Origin: Saprospiraceae bacterium
GTDB lineage: Bacteria > Bacteroidota > Bacteroidia > Chitinophagales > Saprospiraceae
Reading direction: 5' to 3'
DNA length: 42,522 nucleotides
NCBI GenBank assembly: GCA_033762055.1
Contig: JANRLZ010000061.1
Location: 1-42,522 of the forward strand
Part shown: one piece after another, positions 3,877 to 34,443 of the stretch
How the letters are laid out: the number at the start of each line of letters is the position of its first letter
Numbering within the stretch: the stretch's first letter is position 1
Notes under the pieces: generated by a model
Databases searched by the model: none
Seen by the model: only the letters and a program-made list of their open reading frames with translations
Told to the model about the DNA's origin: nothing
Made by a program: the position numbers and the translations under genes

Positions 3877-4860
3877 CTACCGCTTTCGCTCGGTCACGAA
3901 TACCAGCAAATCGCGCAAAGACTGCCGGGCCGGACTTTCGGGCGCAGCGTCGAGCAGGTCGAAGGCTTCCTGGCGAAAGCGGTACATCGCCTGGCGGGCA
4001 TATTCAAGTCCGCCGCTTTGTCGGACGAATTGAATGACTTCCGATACTTTTTCAGGGCGGTGGCTTTCGTTTTTGACGATGTTGATAATGCGGCGGCGTT
4101 CGCTTCGATCGGCCTGCGAGAGCGCATGGATGAGCGGCAGGGTCATCTTTTTTTCCTTGATGTCAATGCCAAGGGGTTTTCCCACATCGTCGTCGCCGAA
4201 ATCGAACAGATCGTCGCGTATCTGAAAGGCCATGCCGGTTTTTTCACCAAAGAGCCACATGCGTTGACGAATCCCTTCATCGCCCGGTGTGGTACTTACC
4301 GCGCCGGCGCAGCAGGCTGCCGCAATGAGCGAGGCCGTTTTCTGGCGGATAATTTCGTAATAAAGATCTTCGTGTATATCGAGCCGTCGGGCTTTTTCCA
4401 TTTGCAACAATTCACCCTCGGCCATTTCCTGTACAGCGCGACTTACAATTTCGAGCAGGGCAAATTGCTGGTGTTTGACCGAAAGCAACAGTCCTTGCGA
4501 CAATAAAAAATCGCCTACGAGAACGGCGATTTTATTCTTCCACAGCGCATTGATGGAAAAAAAACCGCGCCGTTCGTTGGCGTCGTCTACCACATCGTCG
4601 TGTACCAGCGAGGCGGTATGCAGCAGTTCGACGAGAGAAGCGGCGGTATAGGAAGGCTCTCCGAGCGGGCCGAAGAGGCGCGCACTGAGCAGTACCAGCA
4701 TGGGGCGTACCTGTTTGCCTTTGCGCTGCACGATATACCAGGTAATTTTATCGAGCAGGGGCGTTTTACTGCGCATGGCATCACGAAAACGCAACTCGAA
4801 AGTGTCGAGTTCGTCGGCGATCGGCTGTTTTATGGTATCCAAGGACATGGCGAGGGGCAA
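3877..4860 (-). CDS. Polyprenyl diphosphate synthase (trans-isoprenyl diphosphate synthase, IspB-like)
   Basis: Two Asp-rich motifs are present, LVHDDVVDD and FQIRDDLFDFG. The 327-aa length fits the family. Confidence 0.85.
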   Translation of the reverse strand: MPLAMSLDTIKQPIADELDTFELRFRDAMRSKTPLLDKITWYIVQRKGKQVRPMLVLLSARLFGPLGEPSYTAASLVELLHTASLVHDDVVDDANERRGFFSINALWKNKIAVLVGDFLLSQGLLLSVKHQQFALLEIVSRAVQEMAEGELLQMEKARRLDIHEDLYYEIIRQKTASLIAAACCAGAVSTTPGDEGIRQRMWLFGEKTGMAFQIRDDLFDFGDDDVGKPLGIDIKEKKMTLPLIHALSQADRSERRRIINIVKNESHRPEKVSEVIQFVRQSGGLEYARQAMYRFRQEAFDLLDAAPESPARQSLRDLLVFVTERKR

Positions 4861-13586: not shown

Positions 13587-13942
13587 ATGGCTGGAAACGG
13601 GTTCGCGTTGGCAAGGCGGGCAAAGGTAGGCAGTCGTTCCAATATGGCTACACGGTGATTGCTGTGATTTATGGGATAACTGCTAACGGTTATATCAAAA
13701 ATTGAACCCTGCAAAAAAAAACACACAGACGCCGGGTTGTGCCGGTCAGACTTCGCAAAGTTGACGTACAGGACAGGAGAATCGGGGTCGGGAAGCCAGC
13801 GATGTTGCCGGACAAGTCAACGGCACACTGTTTCCTTGAGTCGGTCGCGTGTCCTAAAAAATGAGTGTTCGAGTCGCCGCAGAAAATCGGCGCCTGTGTG
13901 CTCGCAAAGGTAGACGGATCCTGGTCAAAAAACAAGCGGGAA

Positions 13943-15619: not shown

Positions 15620-15845
15620 GCTTGAAAAAAATTGGTTGAAAATTTTTCGGCGCTGATTTGGATGTACTTGCACCGCAAAGGCCCGGGAATTAAGCGGCAA
15701 TTCCGAAAAGGCTCGACCAGCTGGGAGATATTATCGGCGTTCTGTCTGTTTTTGCCCACCTGACAATGCAGCCATCAATACGCGCCAAAGCTCTTTCCCG
15801 TTTTTCATTCCGGGGCGGTACATTTGCGCCACAACTGAGAAAACT

Positions 15846-18434: not shown

Positions 18435-18519
18435 AGCTTTCTAATTTTTATTTTCAGACTTGTTGCGGCGGGGTTAATAATTTTCGGATAGGACAAATTC
18501 TTCCATAATCGCGAATCCT

Positions 18520-19554
18520 TCATCCCTCCTCCATCTCTTCCCAGGCCTGGGCCAGATCCTTGCGACCGATCATGTTTTGGCGGTTTTTCGCGGGACTTTC
18601 CTGTATTTTTTTGTGTAACTCCAATTGTCGGGGCGAGAGCAGGGCTTCGGGCGACCGGTTTTTCCCAACGAGGCTGTTGGCGCGGGCGGCTTGCAGACTG
18701 GTCATGGGGATAAAACGATACGTGGTTTGAGCCAGGTAATACTTGGGCGCGCGATCGGGGCGGAAGCCTTCGTTTTTGGCGCAGCTTTGGAAGTTTTGCG
18801 CAGCGGTTTGACGCTCGAGTTCGGCCCGGGAAGTAATGGCCGGATCGAACTGCACTTTTACCACCTCTTTGCCCCCCTGGAAGCCGGGTTCGGTTTCAAT
18901 AACGCCCGGCAGGCTGCCGAAAGCGGCTTCTCCGTTCCAGAAGCAGTACATGGAAAAAGTAGCGGTTTGCAGTCCGGCCTCGCGGGCGGCGAGTTCTTCT
19001 TCCAGCAATTCGAAGTAGGGCGGCACGGGTGTTGCCGCCCATTCCAGGGCGCGGCGCATACCGTTGACCAACTGGCTGGAGGAATTGAAATTGGTCATGC
19101 GCAGCACCAGATCGCGCTCGTCGTCGGGACGAAGGATGCGTACCACGGGGTTGTTCCAGGCCGGTTCGCCAAAACGGCGCAGGATTTCGGCGTCTTTTCC
19201 GCCTTTGTTGTTGTAAATGCAGACGGGGGTAAAACAGGTTTCAATTGCTTCCACGATCAACGGGTGCGAAAGCGTGTTGTTGCCGTAGCGGGTACAGTTG
19301 GCGCAGCCCGGCACTTCCTGAAACAACAAAAGCAGGGGTTTGCCGCTTTTTTGTGCCTGCGTTTTGCCCGCGTCGTAGTCGCGCAGCCAGCGCACTTTGC
19401 CTAATTCTTCAGGCTGTTCGGGTGATTTTTGTACCGGCAATACCGGCGTTTTTGCCTGTTCCGGAGTGGCGCCGGCCGCTTGTTTTTCCCCTTGAAAAAC
19501 CACGCCCGTGAGAAGGGCCAACGGAAGAAAAAGGAGGGTTAAAAATTGTTTCAT
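18520..19554 (-). CDS. Secreted thioredoxin-fold protein with a VPGCxxCT motif (Cys form of the VPGUxxT (seleno)protein family) fused to an MsrA-like domain
   Basis: I chose the ATG at 19554 (MKQFLTLLFLPLALLTG signal). The redox motif is LFQEVPGCANCTRYG. The downstream segment YCFWNGEAAFGSLPGVIETEPGF resembles the MsrA GCFWG region. Confidence 0.55.
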   Translation of the reverse strand: MKQFLTLLFLPLALLTGVVFQGEKQAAGATPEQAKTPVLPVQKSPEQPEELGKVRWLRDYDAGKTQAQKSGKPLLLLFQEVPGCANCTRYGNNTLSHPLIVEAIETCFTPVCIYNNKGGKDAEILRRFGEPAWNNPVVRILRPDDERDLVLRMTNFNSSSQLVNGMRRALEWAATPVPPYFELLEEELAAREAGLQTATFSMYCFWNGEAAFGSLPGVIETEPGFQGGKEVVKVQFDPAITSRAELERQTAAQNFQSCAKNEGFRPDRAPKYYLAQTTYRFIPMTSLQAARANSLVGKNRSPEALLSPRQLELHKKIQESPAKNRQNMIGRKDLAQAWEEMEEG

Positions 19555-19646
19555 GTGAATTCTGTTGAACATTTCCGAAAATTCGGGTTTATGATGCCAA
19601 TATTGTGTTTTTTCGCCCTCTAAATTAAACGTTTTTTTCCGCCATT

Positions 19647-20348
19647 ATGGAATGGATTACCAATCCCGACATCTGGATCGCATTTTTTACGCTTTGTGCC
19701 CTTGAAATTGTTCTGGGTATTGACAACATCATATTTATCTCCATTCTAACCAGTCGCCTGCCCAAAAATCAGCAGCAGCGCGCCCGGCGAATTGGTTTGG
19801 CACTGGCCATGTTTTCACGCATCGCACTGCTGTTTTCATTGGCCTGGCTCATGCAACTGACCACCCCTTTCATACATGTGATGGGACATGACATCAGCGG
19901 GCGTGATCTGATTTTGTTGTTAGGCGGCTTGTTTTTGATGTACAAAAGTGTGCGGGAAATTCATGCCAAAGTAGAAGAAGCCGACGAACCCGCTGAAAAT
20001 GTCCGCAAGGCGAAATTTGCAGCGGTCATTTCACAAATAATATTGATTGACATTGTGTTCTCCCTCGATTCGGTCATCACAGCCGTGGGCATGGTCAACG
20101 ATATTGGCGTTATGGTGGCTGCCGTGGTTACTTCCGTGGGCGTCATGATGCTGGCCGCCGGCCCGATCAGCGACTTTGTAAGTCGCCACCCGGCAGTGAA
20201 AATTCTGGCCCTGGCCTTCCTCATTATGATTGGCGTTGCCTTGGTGGGTGAAGGACTTGGTTTCCACATTCCGAAAGGCTACATTTACTTTTCCATGGCA
20301 TTTTCTGTGGCGGTGGAATTTATTAATATTCGAATTAAAAGCCGTTGA
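19647..20348 (+). CDS. TerC family integral membrane protein
   Basis: The 233-aa polytopic protein has the TerC-typical segments LEIVLGIDNIIFISIL and LIDIVFSLDSVITAVGM. Confidence 0.8.
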   Translation: MEWITNPDIWIAFFTLCALEIVLGIDNIIFISILTSRLPKNQQQRARRIGLALAMFSRIALLFSLAWLMQLTTPFIHVMGHDISGRDLILLLGGLFLMYKSVREIHAKVEEADEPAENVRKAKFAAVISQIILIDIVFSLDSVITAVGMVNDIGVMVAAVVTSVGVMMLAAGPISDFVSRHPAVKILALAFLIMIGVALVGEGLGFHIPKGYIYFSMAFSVAVEFINIRIKSR

Positions 20349-20352
20349 ATTG

Positions 20353-20383
20353 AGCGCAGGAACCATAGCCTGCGCTATTTTTA
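20353..20383 (+). terminator. Rho-independent terminator after the TerC gene
   Basis: The stem AGCGCAGG (20353-20360) with CCTGCGCT (20369-20376) is followed by ATTTTTA. Confidence 0.65.
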
Positions 20384-20419
20384 CGTACCGCCCGTTTTCG
20401 GCCGGCAGCCCGTTTTTTT

Positions 20420-22651
20420 ATGACCCATTCGCTTTATCGCCTGTTCCATCTTGCGCTCCTTGCGTGTGTTCCCTGGACGCTTTCCGCCCAAAAAAACATC
20501 ACGCTGGAAGACTGTTTTTCCTATTTCAAATTTTACCCGCAAACAGGCGCCAACTTTCAATACCTGCGGGATGGCGTTCATTACGCTGAGGCGGATAATG
20601 ACGGAAAAATCCACCTTCGCGATGTGCGGAATCCGGCATTCGATTCCATTATTCCGTTAAAATTACCCGACGAACTAAAGGGTTTTGATGAATTTGAATT
20701 TAGCGACGATGAAAGCAAAATCATGCTGCGCACCGATGCCGAACCGGTGTACCGCCACTCGGTAAATGCCCGTTATTTTGTGTACAACCTCGCCACCCAA
20801 AGCGTCGAACCGGTGTTTGAAAAAGGCAAACAACAGTTTACCGCCTTCTCTCCCGACGGAGAAAAAATAGCGTTTGTGTTTAATAATAACCTGTATTTCA
20901 AAGACTTAAAAACCAGAAAAACGATACAGGTGACGCACGACGGCGCCGCCAATAAAATTATCAACGGCTTGCCCGACTGGGTGTACGAAGAAGAATTCAG
21001 CCCGGTTGACGGCGACGGCATGGTGGCGACACAATGGAGCCCCGACGGCTCGCTGCTGGCATTCATCCGCTTTGATGAAAGTGCGGTGCCGGAATTCAAA
21101 ATGAACTGGTACGAAGGGGCGATGTATCCCCGTCAAAGCGCTTTCAAATACCCGAAAGTCGGCGAAGCCAACTCGGTGGTAAGTGTGCATTTATTCGACA
21201 CGAAAACAGACGGCATGGTAGGCAAGGTGATGGGCCTGGAGGCTGATGATTACTGTCCGCGAATCCATTTTACGCCCGACAACCAGTTGGTCGTGACACG
21301 TCTGAACCGCCGACAGGATACGCTCGACCTGCTGCTTGCCCTGCCCGATCGGGTCATGTACGATCAGGAAGACCGGACGAACTGGATTCCGACGCGCTTG
21401 CTGCTGGAAGAAACCGACCCGGCATATGTGGAAATCGAGTTGAAAAACAAGCTGGTTTTTTTGAAAAACCGCCCGCACTTCCTCTGGATGAGCGAGCGAA
21501 ACGGCTGGAATCACATTTACCGCTATCCCTTGCAACCCGCCGCTGCAGAAACACCGGTAGCCCTGACCGGCGGGAATTTTGATGTAACCGCCTTTTATGG
21601 AGTGGATGAAAAAAATGGCAAATTTTACTTCCAGGCTGCTACGCCCACCCCGCTCGAGCGGCAACTCTGGGAGGGCGATCTGAACAGCGGCGCCCTGCGC
21701 CTGCTCACGCCGCCGGGCGGGACGCATGAGGCCGATTTTAGTCCGACGTTCGATTATTTCACCCATGTCTGGTCGAATGCCAACACCCCGCCGGTCGTCA
21801 GCATCTGCGACCGCAACGACGATACGCTTCGGGTACTTACCAAAAATGATCGTGTACGCAAACTCCGACAGGAGTACGGTTTTGTCGCCAAGGAATTTTT
21901 CCAGTTTCCCCTGTCCGACGGCACCCTGCTCAATGGCTGGATGCTGCGCCCGGCTACGCTTGATTCGCTGAAAAAATATCCGATCCTGTTTGATATTTAC
22001 GGCGGCCCCGGTTCGCAAACCGTTCAAAATCAATACGATGGTTACATGGACAGCTGGCGACAAATGCTGGTACAGAGAGGATACGTGATCGTCAGCATTG
22101 ACAACCGCGGCACCGGAGCGCGGGGGCGCGATTTCAAAAAATGCACCCAATTACAATTGGGGAAACTGGAAACTGAAGACCAGATTGCCGCAGCGCGTTA
22201 CCTGGGTAGCCAATTCTGGGCCGACCCCAACCGGATCGGTATCTGGGGCTGGAGTTTCGGCGGCTACCTCAGCACTTCCTGTATCCTGAAAGGCGCCGAC
22301 GTGTTCAAGATGGCCATCGCCGTCGCGCCGGTGACCAACTGGAAGTGGTACGACACGGCGTATACAGAGCGTTACATGCACACCACGCGCGACAACCTGT
22401 CGGGCTACGAGGAAAACTCGCCGGTCAATTTTGCCGAGCGCCTTCGCGGCGACAACTACCTGGTCTGCCACGGCATGACCGACGACAATGTGCACTGGCA
22501 GCAAGCCGTGGAAATGATCAATGCCCTGATCAAGGCCAACAAACAGTTTGAAACCTATTATTACCCCAATCGCAACCACGGCATTTACGGCGACAACGCT
22601 ACGCGCCACCTGTTCAGCAAACTGACTGATTTTATTCTGGAGAAATTGTGA
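20420..22651 (+). CDS. Dipeptidyl-peptidase IV (S9B family serine peptidase)
   Basis: The 743-aa protein has a signal peptide, an N-terminal DPP-IV propeller region, and the catalytic GWSFGGY with downstream D..V and H residues (CHGMTDDNVH). Confidence 0.85.
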   Translation: MTHSLYRLFHLALLACVPWTLSAQKNITLEDCFSYFKFYPQTGANFQYLRDGVHYAEADNDGKIHLRDVRNPAFDSIIPLKLPDELKGFDEFEFSDDESKIMLRTDAEPVYRHSVNARYFVYNLATQSVEPVFEKGKQQFTAFSPDGEKIAFVFNNNLYFKDLKTRKTIQVTHDGAANKIINGLPDWVYEEEFSPVDGDGMVATQWSPDGSLLAFIRFDESAVPEFKMNWYEGAMYPRQSAFKYPKVGEANSVVSVHLFDTKTDGMVGKVMGLEADDYCPRIHFTPDNQLVVTRLNRRQDTLDLLLALPDRVMYDQEDRTNWIPTRLLLEETDPAYVEIELKNKLVFLKNRPHFLWMSERNGWNHIYRYPLQPAAAETPVALTGGNFDVTAFYGVDEKNGKFYFQAATPTPLERQLWEGDLNSGALRLLTPPGGTHEADFSPTFDYFTHVWSNANTPPVVSICDRNDDTLRVLTKNDRVRKLRQEYGFVAKEFFQFPLSDGTLLNGWMLRPATLDSLKKYPILFDIYGGPGSQTVQNQYDGYMDSWRQMLVQRGYVIVSIDNRGTGARGRDFKKCTQLQLGKLETEDQIAAARYLGSQFWADPNRIGIWGWSFGGYLSTSCILKGADVFKMAIAVAPVTNWKWYDTAYTERYMHTTRDNLSGYEENSPVNFAERLRGDNYLVCHGMTDDNVHWQQAVEMINALIKANKQFETYYYPNRNHGIYGDNATRHLFSKLTDFILEKL

Positions 22652-22680
22652 GGGGAAGGGGTGACTGGAACCACTTCTAT

Positions 22681-22697
22681 CGCAGCAATTTGCTGCG
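22681..22697. terminator. Short hairpin between the convergent DPP-IV and ATPase genes (weak terminator candidate)
   Basis: The stem CGCAGCA with TGCTGCG is 7 bp with a 3-nt loop. There is no clean T-tract on either side. Confidence 0.3.
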
Positions 22698-22698
22698 C

Positions 22699-24414
22699 TT
22701 ACTCACTTAGTTTTTCCAATTTAGCAAATAGCGCGTGAACATTCTCATGAATCTCGTCATGGTGCATATTGCTGGCTACTGTTGATCGGTCAATAATGAG
22801 ATTTGATACCTTCCGAATTCTTTGAAATAAGGAATCTTCTTTATCAAATAATATTTTTTTTCCGTTTACTTCTTCGAAGATATTTGCCTTGGTGTCAAAC
22901 CATGTTGAATTTTTTGGAAGCGAAAGTCCCTGTTCTTCAAAAAAAACATCAACAATGTCTTCTAACGGCATTGAAATTTGATTAGATTCATCTATATTAA
23001 GTTTATCAAGGATTGCTCTTTTCCAGGCATTTGGGACAAGTAAATAATTTTCAATATTCTTTCTTTCCCATTCAAAAATTGCAGGGTTGTTTTTTTCCGG
23101 ATGATAAGTTTCTTCTGAATCATAATCAAAAACCATCAATTTCTTTACAAGAGGATTGATTTGGCGCAATCCCTTGAAATGGCGTTCAGAATCTTTTTTC
23201 ATTGATTCTTTCGTTCCACCTCCCATTATACGGGGGTGAAACTTTGCAAAAATCTCTGCCTTTTTCAAAATTACTGCCCAAGATCTTAAAATTCTTTCAT
23301 CGTCTTCTCCCTCAACGTAAATGATATAAGGAGACTGAGATGTTTGACTTATTGTCAAGTTGTCTATTTCTGAAAGGGCCGTAATAATCTCCGTTGTTGA
23401 TTCTATTCGCTTGTGTTTGTTTGAGAGTACAGATATGATGGAATCAACGTTAACTCCTTTTATGAACTCTTCGGCATGGGTTGCGATCAAAAATTGGACA
23501 GTTTTCTTTTGTTTGAAAAACTGAATAATTTTTCTCTGTAAATTTACGTGCATATGCGCATCAGGCTCATCCAAAAGTATGGTCGTTAAACCCGGATAGC
23601 CATAAAAGAAAGCGAGCAGTGTAAGTACTTGGTGAAACCCACTTCCCCCTGAAATGATATCAAATTCCTTTCCGCCATAGACCGAGTATGTAACTCCAAT
23701 ATCAGTTCCCGTACCGCCTTTTTCATATTCTGGAGGATTTAGCGTTACACCGAACCATTCATGCATAACAGATTTTAGCTCTGCCCAATCTTGATTTTCT
23801 TTTAAAGAAATTGTTTTCCCGTTGCGCTCTTTGCTGATTACTCTGAAAAGCAGGTTTCGCAAGACCGACCCTGGCTGTGCTTTACCGACATTTCGTCTTA
23901 TCACTGCATCATCGTACCAAATCTCAGTAGGCTCAAGGCCTGAAAAGGGTGGTACGTATAAGATTCTTGGATAAGCATCTGATTTTCGCAGCTCATGAAA
24001 TTTTTCCCATCCAAGTTTTGGGATTGCATAAACAGATTGAGGTGTTTGATAGCGCAGGTTAACGCCGAAAGAAAGGTGCTCTCCCAAAGAACCTCGCCAT
24101 TCGAGGTTAATCTCTATTAAAATATAGGGTTGCCCCTTTTTTTGGGTTTCTTTATTTTTCCATAAAAGATTAAACTCAGGCAAAGGCAAAGCCGTAAAGT
24201 TTGGGAGTACAATTTGTATACCGCTCTCCCCTTTTTTATTGGGCCTTCGGCCAAATTCATCAATACAATATTGCCAAATAGCCAGCGCTTGCAATACCGT
24301 ACTCTTGCCGCTATTGTTTTGCCCTACCAACAAGTCAAAATCTGTAAAATCATAAACTTGATCTTCAATTTTTTTGAAATTTGTTAGGGTAACTCTCTTG
24401 AGCATTTTATTCAT
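22699..24414 (-). CDS. ABC-type (AAA_15/AAA_21-like) ATPase fused to a Toprim/DUF4435-like C-terminal domain; OLD-family or fused PARIS (AriA-AriB)-like candidate defence nuclease
   Basis: ATPase motifs are Walker A GQNNSGKST (aa 31-39), signature-like SGGSG (aa 255-259), Walker B ILLDEPD (aa 279-285) and H-loop ATH (aa 311-313). The C-terminal domain has YVEGEDD (aa 366-372), FDYDSE (aa 429-434) and IENYL (aa 454-458). GC is markedly lower than in the flanks. Confidence 0.7.
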   Translation of the reverse strand: MNKMLKRVTLTNFKKIEDQVYDFTDFDLLVGQNNSGKSTVLQALAIWQYCIDEFGRRPNKKGESGIQIVLPNFTALPLPEFNLLWKNKETQKKGQPYILIEINLEWRGSLGEHLSFGVNLRYQTPQSVYAIPKLGWEKFHELRKSDAYPRILYVPPFSGLEPTEIWYDDAVIRRNVGKAQPGSVLRNLLFRVISKERNGKTISLKENQDWAELKSVMHEWFGVTLNPPEYEKGGTGTDIGVTYSVYGGKEFDIISGGSGFHQVLTLLAFFYGYPGLTTILLDEPDAHMHVNLQRKIIQFFKQKKTVQFLIATHAEEFIKGVNVDSIISVLSNKHKRIESTTEIITALSEIDNLTISQTSQSPYIIYVEGEDDERILRSWAVILKKAEIFAKFHPRIMGGGTKESMKKDSERHFKGLRQINPLVKKLMVFDYDSEETYHPEKNNPAIFEWERKNIENYLLVPNAWKRAILDKLNIDESNQISMPLEDIVDVFFEEQGLSLPKNSTWFDTKANIFEEVNGKKILFDKEDSLFQRIRKVSNLIIDRSTVASNMHHDEIHENVHALFAKLEKLSE

Positions 24415-27400
24415 GTGGCATTTTTTTTTACCAAAGTTACTTCAATGTCAAATTGAATTCCATCATCTAAGGTGACTTTTTCAGCATTTTGCAAATTTTC
24501 AAATATCAACTCATCCGCCAGCACTTCCGACTGAATATAATCGGCAAATTTTTCCACGGCCGGTACGATGGCCGGGTGGCGTTCGATGCGTACGGCGATG
24601 CGGTCGGTGACGTTGAAATCCTTGTCCTTGCGGATATTCTGGATACGGTTGACCAGGTCGCGGGCGGTACCTTCGGCCAGCAGCTCGTCGCTCAGGTTGA
24701 CGTCGAGTGCTACGGTGATGGAACCATCGGAGGCCGATTTCCAGCCCGGAAGATCTTCCGTTTTGATGATGACATCTTCGAGCATAATATCGTACTCGCT
24801 TTTATCGAGCGTGATATGGTAAAATCCGTCGCGCTCCAATTTGGCGAGGTGATGGTCGTCCCAGTAGCGGATGATCGCGCTGACGTACTCCATGTCCTTG
24901 CCGACCTTGGCGCCCAGGGTTTTAAAATTGGGGCGCCCCGATTTTTTCAGCAAGCCGCTGGCATCGGTCACATATTCGAGCGCTTTTACGTTGATTTCGC
25001 TCAAAATCAGGTCTTTCACCGTATCCACTTCGCGGATAAATGCCTCATCGAGTACGGGCAGCATGATTTTTTGGAGCGGCTGGCGTACGCGCAATTTTTC
25101 TCTTTTTCGCACACTAAGCGCCAGCGAACAAATGCGTTGCGCATAATCCATCCGTTTTTCCAGGTCTTTGTCCACCTTGGTCGGGTCGGGCTGAACAAGA
25201 TCGGTAAGGTGTACCGAATCGTGGCGCAACGGTGTGTTGCCGGCTTTGGCGGCATCGCGGATGGGCGCTGTGAGGTTGCGGTAAAGCCAGTCGGAAAAAT
25301 ACGGCGCTACCGAAGCCATGAGTTGTGTCGTCACCATCAGGCATTCGAACAGCGTTTGGTAGGCAGCTAATTTGTCGTCGTTCATTTCGCCTTTCCAGAA
25401 ACGGCGACGCGAGAGGCGAACGTACCAGTTCGACAAGTGTTCGTCCACAAAATCCTCGATGGCGCGGCAGGCGCGCGTCACGTCGTAGTCATCCATCGCA
25501 ACGCGGTAATCGGCCACGAGGGAGTAGAGTTTGGAGATGACCCAGCGATCCAGTTCGCTGCGCTGGTCGTAGGGAAAAACCTTGCGCTCGTCGTGTTTGA
25601 ACCCGTCGAGATTGGCGTAGAGGGCAAAGAAATTGTAGGTGTTGTACAAAGTGCCGAACAACTTGTTGCGCACCTCGATGATGCCTCCGGTGTCGAATTT
25701 CAGGTTGTCCCAGGGGTTGGCGTTCGACATCATGTACCAGCGCGTTGCATCGGCGCCGTAGGTAGAAAGCGTATCGAAAGGATCCACCACATTGCCTTTC
25801 GATTTCGACATTTTTTCTCCGTTTTTATCCAGCACGAGGCCATTCGACACCACATTTTTAAACGCCACCGAATCGTACACCATACCGGCAATGGCGTGCA
25901 GGGTGTAAAACCAACCGCGGGTCTGGTCCACGCCTTCGGCAATGAAAGTGGCAGGATAAGCCACCTCGAAAGGCGTTTTAAACGGTTTGTCATCGCCCTT
26001 TTTTAATTTTTCATAATCAAGTCCCCACTGCGCGTACGGCATCGAACCCGAATCGAACCACACGTCTATGAGGTCGAGCTCGCGGCGCATGGGCCGACCG
26101 GAGGCCGATACCAGCACTACCTCGTCAATAAACGGCCGATGCAGGTCGTCGGGAAGGGTTTGTTGCAACCCGAGGCGGGCGTTGGCCTTTTCCATTTCGG
26201 CGCGCAACTCGACGGTCGAACCGATACAAATTTCCTCCTCGCCGTCGTCGGTGCGCCAGATGGGCAGCGGAATGCCCCAGTAGCGCGAGCGGCTGAGGTT
26301 CCAGTCCTGCAAATTATCGAGCCAGGCGCCGAAACGACCGGTTCCGGTGCTTTCCGGCTGCCAGTTGATGGTACGGTTCAGTTCGGCGAGCCGTTCTTTG
26401 GCCGCAGAAGCGCGCACAAACCAGGAGTCGAGCGGATAATACAGCACCGGCTTGTCGGTACGCCAGCAATGCGGGTAGCTGTGTTTGTATTTTTCAATTT
26501 TAAACGCCTTGTTATCTTCTTTCAGGCGCAATGCAATGAGCAAATCGGTAGGTTTGAAGCTCTTGTCTTGCTGTACTTCGGCGTCGTAATATTCGGCTTT
26601 GACAAATTTTCCGCCGAATTCCGGCACCTCGTCCACAAATTTCCCCTGCTTGTCCACCAGCGGGAAGGGCAGGTCAGGCGATTTTTCGTTGGGCAAGCCG
26701 AGGAATGGCATGCCGGCCGCTTTTACGGCCCTAAAGTCGTCGGCGCCAAAATACGGAGCGGTATGCACCACGCCGGTGCCGTCTTCAGTCGTTACCCAGT
26801 CGCCCGGAATGACGCGGAAGGCTTTTTCTTCGAGTTCGGGAGTGGAGGCAGCAGGGGTGGGGAGCAATTGTTCAAATTGAATTCCCACCAGGTCTTTTCC
26901 GGCAATACCCGCCCGGGCGATGCGGTAGGGAAGCACTTTATCGCCGACTTTAAATTGGTCAAAATCCTGATTTTCGCCTTCGGCGGAAAAGTAGGCCGAA
27001 AGACGCGCTTTGGCGAGGATCACGCTGAGCGGCTGTCCGGTGTAAGGGCTCAGGGTTTGAACTTTTACGTATTCGATTTGGGGGCCCACGGTAAGCGCCA
27101 CGTTGGAAGGAAGCGTCCAGGGGGTAGTCGTCCAGGCCAGTACGCGGAGGTCTTCATTTTCCGTGTCAAAAAAGCGGGCGGAATGTTCATTTTGCCGCAC
27201 TTTGAACATTGCCACTACCGAGATGTCGGTCACTTCCTTATACGTTCCCGGCATGTTCAGTTCGTGCGAGCTGAGTCCGGTTCCAGCAGCCGGGGAATAG
27301 GGCTGGATGGTGAAACCTTTGTACAGAAAGGATTGGCCGTCGGCGGCTTTTTTGTTGTAAAGACGCTGGAGGATGTACCAAACCGTTTCAATGTATTCGT

Positions 27401-27857
27401 TTTCGAAAGTGATGTACGGGTTGTCGAGATCGGCCCAGTAACCCATGCGACGGGTGAGGTCGTCCCACAGGTTTTTATAACGCATCACGGTTTGGCGGCA
27501 GGCGGAGTTGTATTCTTCCACCGTCACCTTTTTGCCGATGTCTTCTTTGGTGATACCGAGTTCTTTTTCGACCTGAAGTTCGATGGGCAGTCCGTGGGTA
27601 TCCCAACCGCCTTTTCGTTCCACCCGGTAGCCTTTGAGGGTGTTGTAACGGCAAAAGAGGTCTTTCACCGTTCGGGCCATCACATGGTGGATGCCGGGTT
27701 TGCCATTGGCTGAAGGCGGACCTTCGTAAAACACAAACGCCTGGTCTTTCGGGCGTTGGCCGACGGATTGTTCAAAAATCTTTTCTTCTTCCCAAAACTG
27801 TCGGACTTCAGCGTCAATGGCCGGCAGGTTGAGATGTTTGAATTCGCGGTACATCAT
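24411..27857 (-). CDS. ileS: Isoleucine--tRNA ligase (type 2)
   Basis: The 1148-aa protein has a HIGH-type motif (PSANGKPGIHHVMA), KMSKSKGN, and a CP1 editing domain region. Confidence 0.95.
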   Translation of the reverse strand: MMYREFKHLNLPAIDAEVRQFWEEEKIFEQSVGQRPKDQAFVFYEGPPSANGKPGIHHVMARTVKDLFCRYNTLKGYRVERKGGWDTHGLPIELQVEKELGITKEDIGKKVTVEEYNSACRQTVMRYKNLWDDLTRRMGYWADLDNPYITFENEYIETVWYILQRLYNKKAADGQSFLYKGFTIQPYSPAAGTGLSSHELNMPGTYKEVTDISVVAMFKVRQNEHSARFFDTENEDLRVLAWTTTPWTLPSNVALTVGPQIEYVKVQTLSPYTGQPLSVILAKARLSAYFSAEGENQDFDQFKVGDKVLPYRIARAGIAGKDLVGIQFEQLLPTPAASTPELEEKAFRVIPGDWVTTEDGTGVVHTAPYFGADDFRAVKAAGMPFLGLPNEKSPDLPFPLVDKQGKFVDEVPEFGGKFVKAEYYDAEVQQDKSFKPTDLLIALRLKEDNKAFKIEKYKHSYPHCWRTDKPVLYYPLDSWFVRASAAKERLAELNRTINWQPESTGTGRFGAWLDNLQDWNLSRSRYWGIPLPIWRTDDGEEEICIGSTVELRAEMEKANARLGLQQTLPDDLHRPFIDEVVLVSASGRPMRRELDLIDVWFDSGSMPYAQWGLDYEKLKKGDDKPFKTPFEVAYPATFIAEGVDQTRGWFYTLHAIAGMVYDSVAFKNVVSNGLVLDKNGEKMSKSKGNVVDPFDTLSTYGADATRWYMMSNANPWDNLKFDTGGIIEVRNKLFGTLYNTYNFFALYANLDGFKHDERKVFPYDQRSELDRWVISKLYSLVADYRVAMDDYDVTRACRAIEDFVDEHLSNWYVRLSRRRFWKGEMNDDKLAAYQTLFECLMVTTQLMASVAPYFSDWLYRNLTAPIRDAAKAGNTPLRHDSVHLTDLVQPDPTKVDKDLEKRMDYAQRICSLALSVRKREKLRVRQPLQKIMLPVLDEAFIREVDTVKDLILSEINVKALEYVTDASGLLKKSGRPNFKTLGAKVGKDMEYVSAIIRYWDDHHLAKLERDGFYHITLDKSEYDIMLEDVIIKTEDLPGWKSASDGSITVALDVNLSDELLAEGTARDLVNRIQNIRKDKDFNVTDRIAVRIERHPAIVPAVEKFADYIQSEVLADELIFENLQNAEKVTLDDGIQFDIEVTLVKKNAT

Positions 27858-27971
27858 TTCGATTGGTTCGATTTTTCGATTGATTCGATTTTTCGATTGA
27901 AGGATAAAACCAATCCTGACCGAGCGAAGCGAGGAGAACGCAATCGGATCAATCGAAAAACCGAACCAATC
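27858..27971 (-). promoter_or_regulatory. Structured ileS 5' leader: a 30-bp stem made from TTCGATT-type repeats that ends 3 nt upstream of the AUG
   Basis: Arms 27861-27890 and 27942-27971 are 28/30 complementary; in RNA sense the two exceptions are one G-U pair and one C-A mismatch. The proximal arm contains a perfect 17-nt tandem repeat, TTCGATTTTTCGATTGA x2, at 27867-27900. Confidence 0.55.
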
Positions 27972-29663: not shown

Positions 29664-29752
29664 AAGGCCGCAAAGATAAGATTATCCTTGTTTTCACAGC
29701 GCCTTGCGGGCTGGTGAATATCCACATTTGCCCGCAGTCTTCAGACATTCGG

Positions 29753-31243: not shown

Positions 31244-31568
31244 GGTGGTGCAAATAATTTTAAGTGTAAATTCTACAATAAGTAGATGGCCGCAAAATTA
31301 AAAGAATATAGCCAACCGACATGAATAACAAAGCAATAATTTATGCAAAAAAACGATTTGTAAGCAAAAATAGCACGGGGCCGACAAAACGGAGAGGAGA
31401 AACCTGTCATGCACAAACCTTCTAAGTGTTAATTTTACAAAAAGTATGTTTTGCCCCTTTTTGCTGTAATCCAAAAAAATACGGGTAAAATGTTTGATAA
31501 ACCTGCAGGGTTGCGTTCCTTTGCACCCTGAAAAATTGACTTTTTTTCACCAACAAGTTTTGAAAAAC

Positions 31569-34277: not shown

Positions 34278-34443
34278 TTTTATGCTGTTTTTGTGGCGAA
34301 AATAAAGCATTGAACGAATTCTGCCCCATGAGTTATCAAACCCTTCCTTTAACCCCCAGCTTTTCTTTTATTTTTGCCATCCAAATTCACGCTTGTTGTA
34401 TGAAGGGAAACGCTTCAATCCGTTTCCAAACATCATCCTAACC

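Follow-up and report, generated by a model that had tools for sequence, protein, structure and literature searches.

The classes of OLD proteins are defined by gene context, and class 1 comprises solo genes located away from other defence genes (PMC10568477). An anti-phage role has been demonstrated for only two class 1 OLD nucleases, P2 Old and Vc OLD, the latter being a solo defensive DNA nickase of Vibrio cholerae (PMC12392090). Whether solo OLD proteins defend alone, and how the fused ATPase-Toprim form relates to PARIS, are questions of the field (PMC10568477). Previous studies also showed that OLD-ABC and Toprim modules have been recruited to BREX/RM-like operons as "backup suicidal effectors" (PMC12839542), and that ABC ATPases regulate nuclease domains in PrrC and RloC (cited in PMC12065111). 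Here, we describe an OLD-family ABC ATPase-Toprim open reading frame (ORF) encoding a single chain of 571 amino acids (aa) on the minus strand (22699..24414) of a contig of a Saprospiraceae bacterium (JANRLZ010000061.1, assembly GCA_033762055.1), of which positions 1 to 42,522 were analysed (42.5 kb, hereafter the window). The ORF was characterised from the ORF list, base composition and homologs. By the context definition it belongs to class 1, since no helicase, reverse transcriptase or other defence gene is adjacent.

The candidate belongs to a known kind of defence gene, of which it is an uncharacterised member, rather than to a new kind of system. A preliminary description of this DNA had considered an undescribed subtype, which is fair at the level of the clade, but the combination of OLD-ABC ATPase and Toprim is itself well known. 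It had also called the placement unusual for a defence gene, whereas a solo position amid housekeeping genes is a hallmark of class 1 OLD (PMC10568477). The clade is widespread (445 clusters at 50% identity contain its Toprim domain) and is missed by the Pfam Toprim families. Its members are found solo as well as within Mod-X-Res or Mod-X-UvrD operons (X being the family gene), which offers a natural test of partner dependence, and the clade could link OLD classes 1, 2 and 4.

A strain-variable cassette between DPP-IV and ileS

The neighbours of the 571-aa ORF are ileS and DPP-IV. Its ATG overlaps the stop codon of ileS as ATGA, and DPP-IV is convergent with it, at a stop-to-stop distance of 47 nucleotides (nt). 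The ORF has a guanine-plus-cytosine (GC) content of 0.375 and a third-codon-position GC content (GC3) of 0.334, compared with 0.53 and 0.65 in ileS, DPP-IV and cysS. The flank GC of about 60% given in the preliminary description is slightly high, as the gene means are 53%, while the low GC of the gene itself was borne out. When the 42.5 kb was scanned in 1716-nt windows (mean 0.505, standard deviation 0.032), the minimum of 0.369 fell on the candidate gene, about four standard deviations under the mean. Neither a partner gene nor an integrase, tRNA or Rfam element was detected in the window by the ORF list and the tRNA and Rfam scans; homologs of Mod, Res and UvrD were likewise absent from it, and no reverse transcriptase or non-coding RNA (ncRNA) lies next to the ORF, judging from the ORF list and the lack of any Rfam match in the window. 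The gene thus stands alone within the 42.5 kb, with no partner, integrase or convincing flanking repeat, as had been proposed.

The foreign origin of this DNA is evident from an empty site. Four independent assemblies (L210-L213), located through their close DPP-IV homologs, share 98.0-98.5% identity with the window over 18518-22655 and 98.7-99.1% over as much of 24513-27886 as each contig spans, and they hold 175 nt at the site of the window's 1857 nt (22656-24512). These 1857 nt form a foreign cassette (22656..24512), which consists of a 43-nt spacer, the 571-aa ORF, and a replaced 3' end of ileS. Its breakpoints are sharp: the DPP-IV stop codon marks the first, and the second falls within ileS at 24512/24513, after GTGCTGGCGGAT. 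No target-site duplication, integrase or tRNA was found at the cassette. Flanking direct or inverted repeats were considered as insertion scars and rejected, as only short chance-level matches occur, none of them at the breakpoints. Because a 98-99% identical strain has the empty site, the cassette DNA is foreign, horizontally acquired and strain-variable, and the earlier description of a low-GC foreign single-gene insertion between DPP-IV and ileS (GC3 0.33 vs. 0.65) holds.

The ileS part of the cassette is an AT-rich, recoded 3' end of 98 nt (24415..24512, minus strand), delimited by the empty-site and GC comparisons. The last 120 nt of ileS have a GC of 0.35 in the window vs. 0.50 in the empty-site strain, and of 0.47-0.60 in 12 of 13 other relatives (the outlier, L018, has 0.36 and a poorly aligned tail). 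The IleS tail of the window, 5 aa longer, retains homology to IleS tails; the ileS tail of the empty-site strain has normal GC and is similar to those of relatives. No donor lineage of the AT-rich IleS tail stood out in the search, and no resemblance was found to the sequence upstream of other family genes. A family homolog within 6 kb of ileS was found in none of the 80 representatives of related species (IleS 50-88% identical). The same 80 GTDB relatives were tried as a source of empty sites and failed, none having the cysS-ileS-DPP-IV arrangement. Comparison of the junction in relatives, suggested earlier as a way of recognising a core gene, shows that the gene is not core: it is missing from L210-L213, and the 80 species have no homolog near ileS.

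The cassette most likely entered by recombination anchored in the 3' ends of ileS and DPP-IV, because it brings its own homologous ileS tail and shows neither integrase nor target duplication. Neither recombinase nor repeat accompanies the event, in which the end of an essential gene (ileS) is replaced, and the locus is a clean natural case of strain-level gain or loss of a defence-type gene.

Domain architecture of the candidate protein

All motifs listed in the preliminary description (GQNNSGKST, SGGSG, ILLDEPD, ATH, YVEGEDD, FDYDSE, and IENYL at 454-458) are in place, and none of their key residues varies among the 37 aligned homologs, on which all statements of invariance are based. The C-terminal half was modelled alone with the family alignment at high confidence (predicted local distance difference test (pLDDT) 91.5, predicted template modelling score 0.87). 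Its best Foldseek matches in the PDB are the C-terminal regions of class 2 OLD proteins from Xanthomonas and Burkholderia (6njx/6njw/6nk8; E 4e-4 to 3e-3, template modelling (TM) score 0.46-0.53, probability 1.0, about 240 columns aligned), which likewise hold a helical domain. They are followed by AriB of two PARIS complexes (8ux9_A, E 7e-3, and a second at 1.3e-2; probability 0.96 and 0.92, TM score 0.25-0.33), and GajA comes third in this order. Against viral structures (BFVD), the model gave nothing significant (best E 0.077). The predicted fold supports the earlier reading of the C-terminal half as an OLD-type Toprim nuclease domain.

The Toprim core (aa 361-460; 23035..23334, minus strand) was delimited from the model, Foldseek and PADLOC, and the hidden Markov models (HMMs) of GajA and AriAB span from Walker B into its EGEDD motif. 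In this acidic motif (E368...D372; 23299..23313, minus strand) E368, G369 and D372 are invariant, as are both aspartates of the DxD motif D430-Y-D432 (23119..23127, minus strand). D430 lies 62 residues past E368, and the spacing of E368/D372/D430/D432 equals that of AriB E26/D30/D88/E90 (PMC11464382). These putative catalytic residues fit the two-metal scheme of OLD nucleases (PMC7049728). A further conserved block, EWxRxNIENY (aa 448-457; 23044..23073, minus strand; E448, W449, R451, N453, I454, N456 and Y457 invariant), may contribute to the second metal site or to substrate binding. Past the core, the C-terminal helical region (aa 461-571; 22702..23034, minus strand; model pLDDT 90-97) carries the invariant residues G518 and K519.

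At the level of sequence profiles, no Pfam family reaches its cut-off on the C-terminal half. DUF4435 (PF14491) scores 19.5 bits vs. a cut-off of 27 (E 8.7e-4) and is sub-threshold in two of 25 family members, and OLD-like_TOPRIM (PF20469) gives no match to the window protein. The whole protein matches the PADLOC AriAB model at 7e-20 with two stretches aligned, the best of which covers 334-537 of 694 profile positions, and the AriB HMM aligns with the C-terminal half over profile positions 4-119 of 236. When family profiles were searched against PDB sequences, that of the whole protein picked up ATPase domains only and that of the C-terminal half nothing meaningful, and neither recovered AriB or an OLD C-terminal region. 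With DUF4435 below its cut-off and the AriAB profile covered in part, the assignment to DUF4435 and PARIS proposed earlier finds little backing.

The ABC ATPase half (aa 1-340; 23395..24414, minus strand) is of the OLD-ABC/AAA_15/AAA_21 type according to Pfam, PADLOC and Foldseek, in agreement with the preliminary description. Its Pfam matches are AAA_21 (5e-18, 66.6 bits, cut-off 27), AAA_15 (4.9e-16, 59.7 bits, cut-off 32.1) and SMC_N (3.2e-10), the first two of which match all 37 homologs, and it resembles Rad50/SMC/RecF heads. In PADLOC, NsnB is best (4.7e-26, aa 4-342 on profile positions 1-305 of 345), followed by AriA (1e-20), and the Old model matches the candidate protein weakly or through the P-loop only. 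A model of the whole protein (pLDDT 80.7) matches PtuA, retron ATPases, GajA, Thermus OLD and SMC heads in Foldseek at E 1e-10 to 1e-12; Thermus OLD (6p74) matches the fold of the whole protein (E 2e-10), and GajA aligns over about 660-690 columns.

The nucleotide-binding motifs, all on the minus strand, are Walker A GQNNSGKST (24298..24324; G31, N33, N34, G36, K37 and S38 invariant), a signature-like SGGSG at aa 255-259 (23638..23652; G257, S258 and G259 invariant), which is (S/A)GGSG across the family, Walker B plus D-loop ILLDEPD at aa 279-285 (23560..23580; L280, D282, E283, P284, D285, A286 and H287 invariant), and the H-loop H313 of the ATH motif (23476..23478; A311 and H313 invariant). 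As regards the dimerisation domain that is inserted in the ATPase of class 1 OLD proteins, the model has, between Walker A and the signature, only short helices (135-144, 181-193 and 208-221) plus a low-confidence loop at aa 158-180 (23875..23943, minus strand), which was recognised from the model and the alignment within PPFSG...GKxQPGSVxRNLL. The structure model is at its least confident in this loop (pLDDT below 50), and P155, P156, F157, S158, E164, D168, G177, K178 and Q180-V184 in and around it are invariant; it may be an interface or a sensing element.

Family distribution and genomic contexts

A word-indexed search returned more than 100 full-length homologs of about 570 aa with 53-85% identity, whose names point to Bacteroidota, Bacteroidales, Cytophagales, Odoribacter or Cloacimonetes, or are generic ("AAA family ATPase", "ATP-dependent nuclease"). 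The C-terminal profile, searched against 1.84 billion representatives clustered at 50% identity, matched 445 clusters at E <= 1e-3 and 135 at E <= 1e-10, most of them fused proteins of 530-620 aa. Mean column identity over the 37 homologs is 62%. DUF4435 had no match in 19 of 20 more distant relatives, and the remaining one, the 229-aa stand-alone protein P0208, had a single sub-threshold match (16.3 bits vs. 27) and no PADLOC match. Nine of ten distant relatives tested in PADLOC gave moderate NsnB, AriA and AriAB scores (1e-16 to 1e-29), and the AriAB alignment always lay within about 300-550 of the 694 profile positions. Judged by these sequence comparisons, the family is a distinct ATPase-Toprim clade, mostly solo, and not the canonical merged PARIS clade. 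The closest matches on viral contigs (IMG/VR) are 55% identical and cover the ATPase half only. Two of these contigs (L093, 6001-8219, and L094) hold an ATPase-half homolog as a 343-aa ORF whose end coincides precisely with the domain boundary; a different ABC-ATPase-like ORF (396 aa) comes next, overlapping it by 4 nt, and a helicase-like 421-aa ORF lies on the opposite strand. This arrangement may represent a module swap that replaced the Toprim half.

Neighbours were analysed at 85 loci, namely the window, 80 loci from metagenomes and four identified before this survey. In the contexts inspected first, the gene stood solo amid unrelated housekeeping genes, and its genomic position varied. 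A methyltransferase gene lies directly upstream on the same strand in 12 of the 56 loci with enough upstream sequence; it belongs to Pfam N6_N4_Mtase, and its best PDB matches are Type III Mod proteins (6k0w_B, 4e-20; EcoP15I Mod, 1.3e-13). Among the 62 loci with enough downstream sequence, a ResIII protein follows in four and a UvrD-family helicase, often with a RelE/HigB-like N-terminus, in six. Neither partner has a PDB sequence match, so the likeness of the UvrD-family protein to GajB is unproven. The UvrD-family partner in L150 (6820-7926) and its homologs P0271-P0390, often with an N-terminal RelE/HigB-like domain (PF05015; JGI name RelE), is an unusual toxin-like/helicase fusion.

L205-L207 contain an N6_N4_Mtase - X - ResIII operon whose X shares 58% identity with the window protein; X starts 11 nt past the methyltransferase gene and overlaps the ResIII gene by 4 nt. 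In L205 (600-15800; also in L206 and L207), these genes lie on an integrative element that also carries an integrase, a D5_N/DUF5906 primase and HTH_17, and the order N6_N4_Mtase - ATPase-Toprim - ResIII is followed by AAA_24, DUF3871 and RadC; the element is a mobile carrier of the three-gene form. One solo relative holds an 81-aa res remnant. The GC of the family gene is under that of its flanks in 62 of 63 loci (mean difference 0.07). Because its GC3 reaches 0.7-0.8 in high-GC hosts, the window copy is an extreme, little-ameliorated case. Elsewhere, L008 (182-977) holds a GmrSD_N (DUF262) ORF with an 89-aa AAA_15 fragment about 5 kb upstream of a family member, which may be a decayed Menshen-like or GmrSD-like system, and a Fic gene lies just downstream of that family member.

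Comparison with described systems

The candidate resembles the class 1 OLD proteins (P2 Old, Thermus scotoductus OLD, Vc OLD) in its two-metal acidic constellation and in size (Thermus OLD 528 aa vs. 571). However, the ABC signature of those proteins is degenerate (PMC7049728), whereas the signature-like motif of the candidate is conserved; Thermus OLD is without a C-terminal bundle (PMC7049728), whereas the candidate has a helical region past the Toprim core; and the Pfam OLD-like_TOPRIM and PADLOC Old models match it poorly. With class 2 OLD, or Gabija, it shares a Toprim plus helical C-terminal fold, its best fold match, and the UvrD-family gene downstream in 6/62 family loci recalls GajB, a UvrD-like helicase. 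Unlike Gabija, there is no helicase by the candidate, elsewhere in the window, in L001 or in most loci, and its GajA HMM matches are modest and partial (E ~1e-13 to 1e-15). Class 3 OLD (retron) differs in having a reverse transcriptase and ncRNA adjacent, both missing here.

PARIS (class 4 OLD) is built from the same two modules, fused AriAB forms exist (PMC11464382), and the spacing of the catalytic residues is equal. It differs in that DUF4435 stays under its cut-off in the candidate, the AriAB profile is covered in part, the TM score to AriB lies below that to OLD C-terminal regions, and the ATPase is compact and nearer NsnB than AriA. The C-terminal fold and the UvrD partner of relatives thus point toward class 2, whereas the sequence profiles point toward class 4. 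NsnB of Menshen is likewise a compact OLD-ABC ATPase without a long coiled-coil insertion (PMC12065111) and is the best PADLOC match of the ATPase half, but its C-terminus is DUF3696, not Toprim (PMC12065111). Membership in Menshen was rejected, as NsnA (DUF262) and NsnC are required (PMC12065111) and are absent at the candidate locus. The family relatives flanked by a Type III-like mod gene on one side and res or UvrD on the other resemble the BREX/RM-like theme, while the window copy has no restriction-modification (R-M) neighbour; these operon contexts are an already known theme, because such recruitment has been described (PMC12839542). The likeness to PrrC and RloC is only a functional analogy drawn from the literature. 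A resemblance to Hma (helicase-methylase-ATPase) is not claimed, as the one HmaC match is weak (E 0.0055).

Divergence between two lineages

A second lineage, L001-L003, has the same arrangement, AT-rich ileS tail and ATGA overlap as the window. Its flanking DNA is about 83% identical to that of the window, IleS 91% and the candidate protein 85%. Between the window (22656-24512) and L001 (9900-11760), nucleotide identity of the cassette is 77% vs. 82-88% in the flanks, and differences at four-fold degenerate sites amount to 0.64 in the candidate gene and 0.32-0.48 in cysS, ileS and DPP-IV. The non-synonymous divergence (dN) of the candidate gene is 0.096 and its proportion of synonymous differences (pS) 0.77; with synonymous sites thus saturated, dN/dS (the ratio of non-synonymous to synonymous divergence) of the cassette was not computable. 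All 108 family-invariant positions (108/108) are identical between the two copies. Because these residues are unchanged despite saturated synonymous sites, the gene is under purifying selection. The ATPase half (23395-24414) is 92% identical in aa sequence and the Toprim/helical half (22702-23394) 74.5%; the faster divergence of the Toprim half is the opposite of what would be expected if the ATPase were a fast-evolving sensor. Both cassette alleles hold a GC3 of 0.30-0.33 in genomes of GC3 0.65. The alleles look older than their flanks and may have been exchanged by recombination in the conserved ends of the flanking genes. Alternatively, relaxed codon selection with an AT-biased mutation pattern, or selection for AT-richness, may account for the divergence.

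Proposed function and alternative explanations

From motifs and models, we lean modestly towards the view that the cassette gene encodes an ATP-regulated two-metal Toprim nuclease acting in defence against phages or other mobile elements. The ATPase head would serve as sensor and switch. It would probably dimerise head-to-head in an ATP-dependent manner, as proposed because the signature-like, Walker B and H-loop motifs are retained, and it would gate the predicted two-metal Toprim site (E368/D372, D430/D432), whose nuclease action would stop replication of the phage or other mobile element. A defence role would fit the relatives that neighbour Mod, ResIII or UvrD genes, one such Mod-X-ResIII operon lying on an integrase/primase element. 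By analogy, DNA is favoured over tRNA as the substrate, because the closest fold is that of the DNA-cleaving class 2 OLD, the partners of relatives are DNA-acting, and Vc OLD offers a precedent. Cleavage of tRNA stays a serious rival, because the Toprim half has sequence-level affinity to AriB.

Several observations weigh against this proposal. The only significant sequence-profile matches of the Toprim half are PADLOC AriAB (3.9e-7) and AriB (1.2e-6), and AriB cleaves tRNA, not DNA (PMC11464382). OLD-like_TOPRIM matches only three of 25 family C-terminal halves, at E 0.034 or worse. Most family copies sit amid housekeeping genes. No family member was found in sequenced phages by tblastn, and plasmids hold only distant ATPases of 21-29% identity in the same kind of search. 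Outside defence, one archaeal OLD ATPase functions in the cell cycle (PMC12796447). Finally, the identity of the trigger and the dimerisation are purely what we infer.

The gene could instead be a merged PARIS-type AriAB, in which the ATPase senses a phage anti-restriction protein and the Toprim domain cuts host tRNA anticodon loops, leading to translation arrest (abortive infection). This would agree with the AriAB match of the whole protein (7e-20), with the AriAB and AriB matches of the C-terminal half just given, which recur in 16/25 and 12/25 family C-terminal halves, respectively, and with the presence of AriB 8ux9_A among the fold matches (E 7e-3, probability 0.96). The acidic spacing equals that of AriB, merged ariAB clades exist (PMC11464382), and relatives in R-M operons would suit an "anti-anti-restriction" role (PMC12839542). 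However, we regard it as rather unlikely: DUF4435 stays at 19.5 vs. 27 bits, with no match in 19/20 more distant relatives and a sub-threshold one in P0208; the AriAB alignment is confined to about 320-537 of 694 positions; neither family profile recovers AriB from the PDB by sequence; the TM score to AriB is 0.25-0.33 vs. 0.46-0.53 to class 2 OLD C-terminal regions; and the ATPase half is compact and resembles NsnB more closely than the AriA models. An orphaned middle gene of a Mod-X-Res or Mod-X-UvrD system, useless without its partners, would be in line with the closest relatives outside the L001 lineage (58-59% identity), which include Mod-X-ResIII operons, with the solo relative that holds the 81-aa res remnant, and with the lack of any Mod, Res or UvrD homolog in the window, although partners could sit elsewhere in the genome. 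It appears improbable given that about three quarters of the sampled loci are solo, that the gene is intact with all invariant residues kept in two lineages whose synonymous sites are saturated, and that the ATGA coupling to ileS and the -7 box are conserved.

Least probable of all, and very unlikely, is a non-immune housekeeping or accessory ATPase-nuclease of DNA repair or chromosome maintenance (RecF/RecN/SbcC-like, or like the archaeal Cran1). The Rad50/SMC/RecF-like ATPase, a mean column identity of 62%, which is high for a defence gene, and the archaeal OLD-family ATPase that works in the cell cycle (PMC12796447) would suit such a role, but the gene is missing in a 98-99% identical strain and at the ileS locus of 80 related species, its composition is foreign, its positions vary, and relatives are linked to R-M and integrative elements. 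Beyond the proposed defence nuclease lies a more far-reaching and doubtful idea, that the clade is a separate OLD class acting as a portable "restriction guard", in which operon copies would fire on blocked restriction, solo copies would sense anti-restriction factors, and the cassette would spread among related bacteria by homologous recombination anchored in the 3' ends of conserved genes, taking its recoded ileS tail along.

Expression signals

Seventeen nt upstream of the ATG, TAACTTTG (24432..24439, minus strand; read from the sequence) matches the Bacteroidota -7 promoter element and is kept together with the following A-run in L001 and L003. The motif occurs in the whole window at chance level (25 observed, 25.8 expected), and a promoter function of TAACTTTG is conceivable from sequence alone. 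Scans for sigma-70 promoters and terminators also gave chance-level results, such scans being ill-suited to Bacteroidota. Transcription of the gene would probably rely on read-through from ileS, on a promoter that the cassette brings along in the recoded ileS tail, or on both; read-through is proposed because the ATGA overlap is conserved. The preliminary description had the gene riding on the ileS transcript, for which the overlap speaks, but the cassette replaced the ileS 3' end and carries its own -7 box.

TAnnTTTG was also observed at 29671-29678, 31293-31300, 34369-34376, 15819-15826 and 13621-13628, a few to tens of nt before ORF starts (cysS and others); this placement is consistent with Bacteroidota-type promoters with very short leaders, with the motif count at chance. 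Directly 3' of the stop codon of the 571-aa ORF, a short inverted repeat, GCGCAGCAAATTGCTGCG (22681..22698, minus strand), was read from the sequence; no T-run follows, and it was not called by the terminator scan. At the empty site (L210, ~4260-4315), an 11-base-pair perfect inverted repeat, GCAGACAGGGC...GCCCTGTCTGC, lies between DPP-IV and ileS and is probably a bidirectional terminator that was removed by the cassette.

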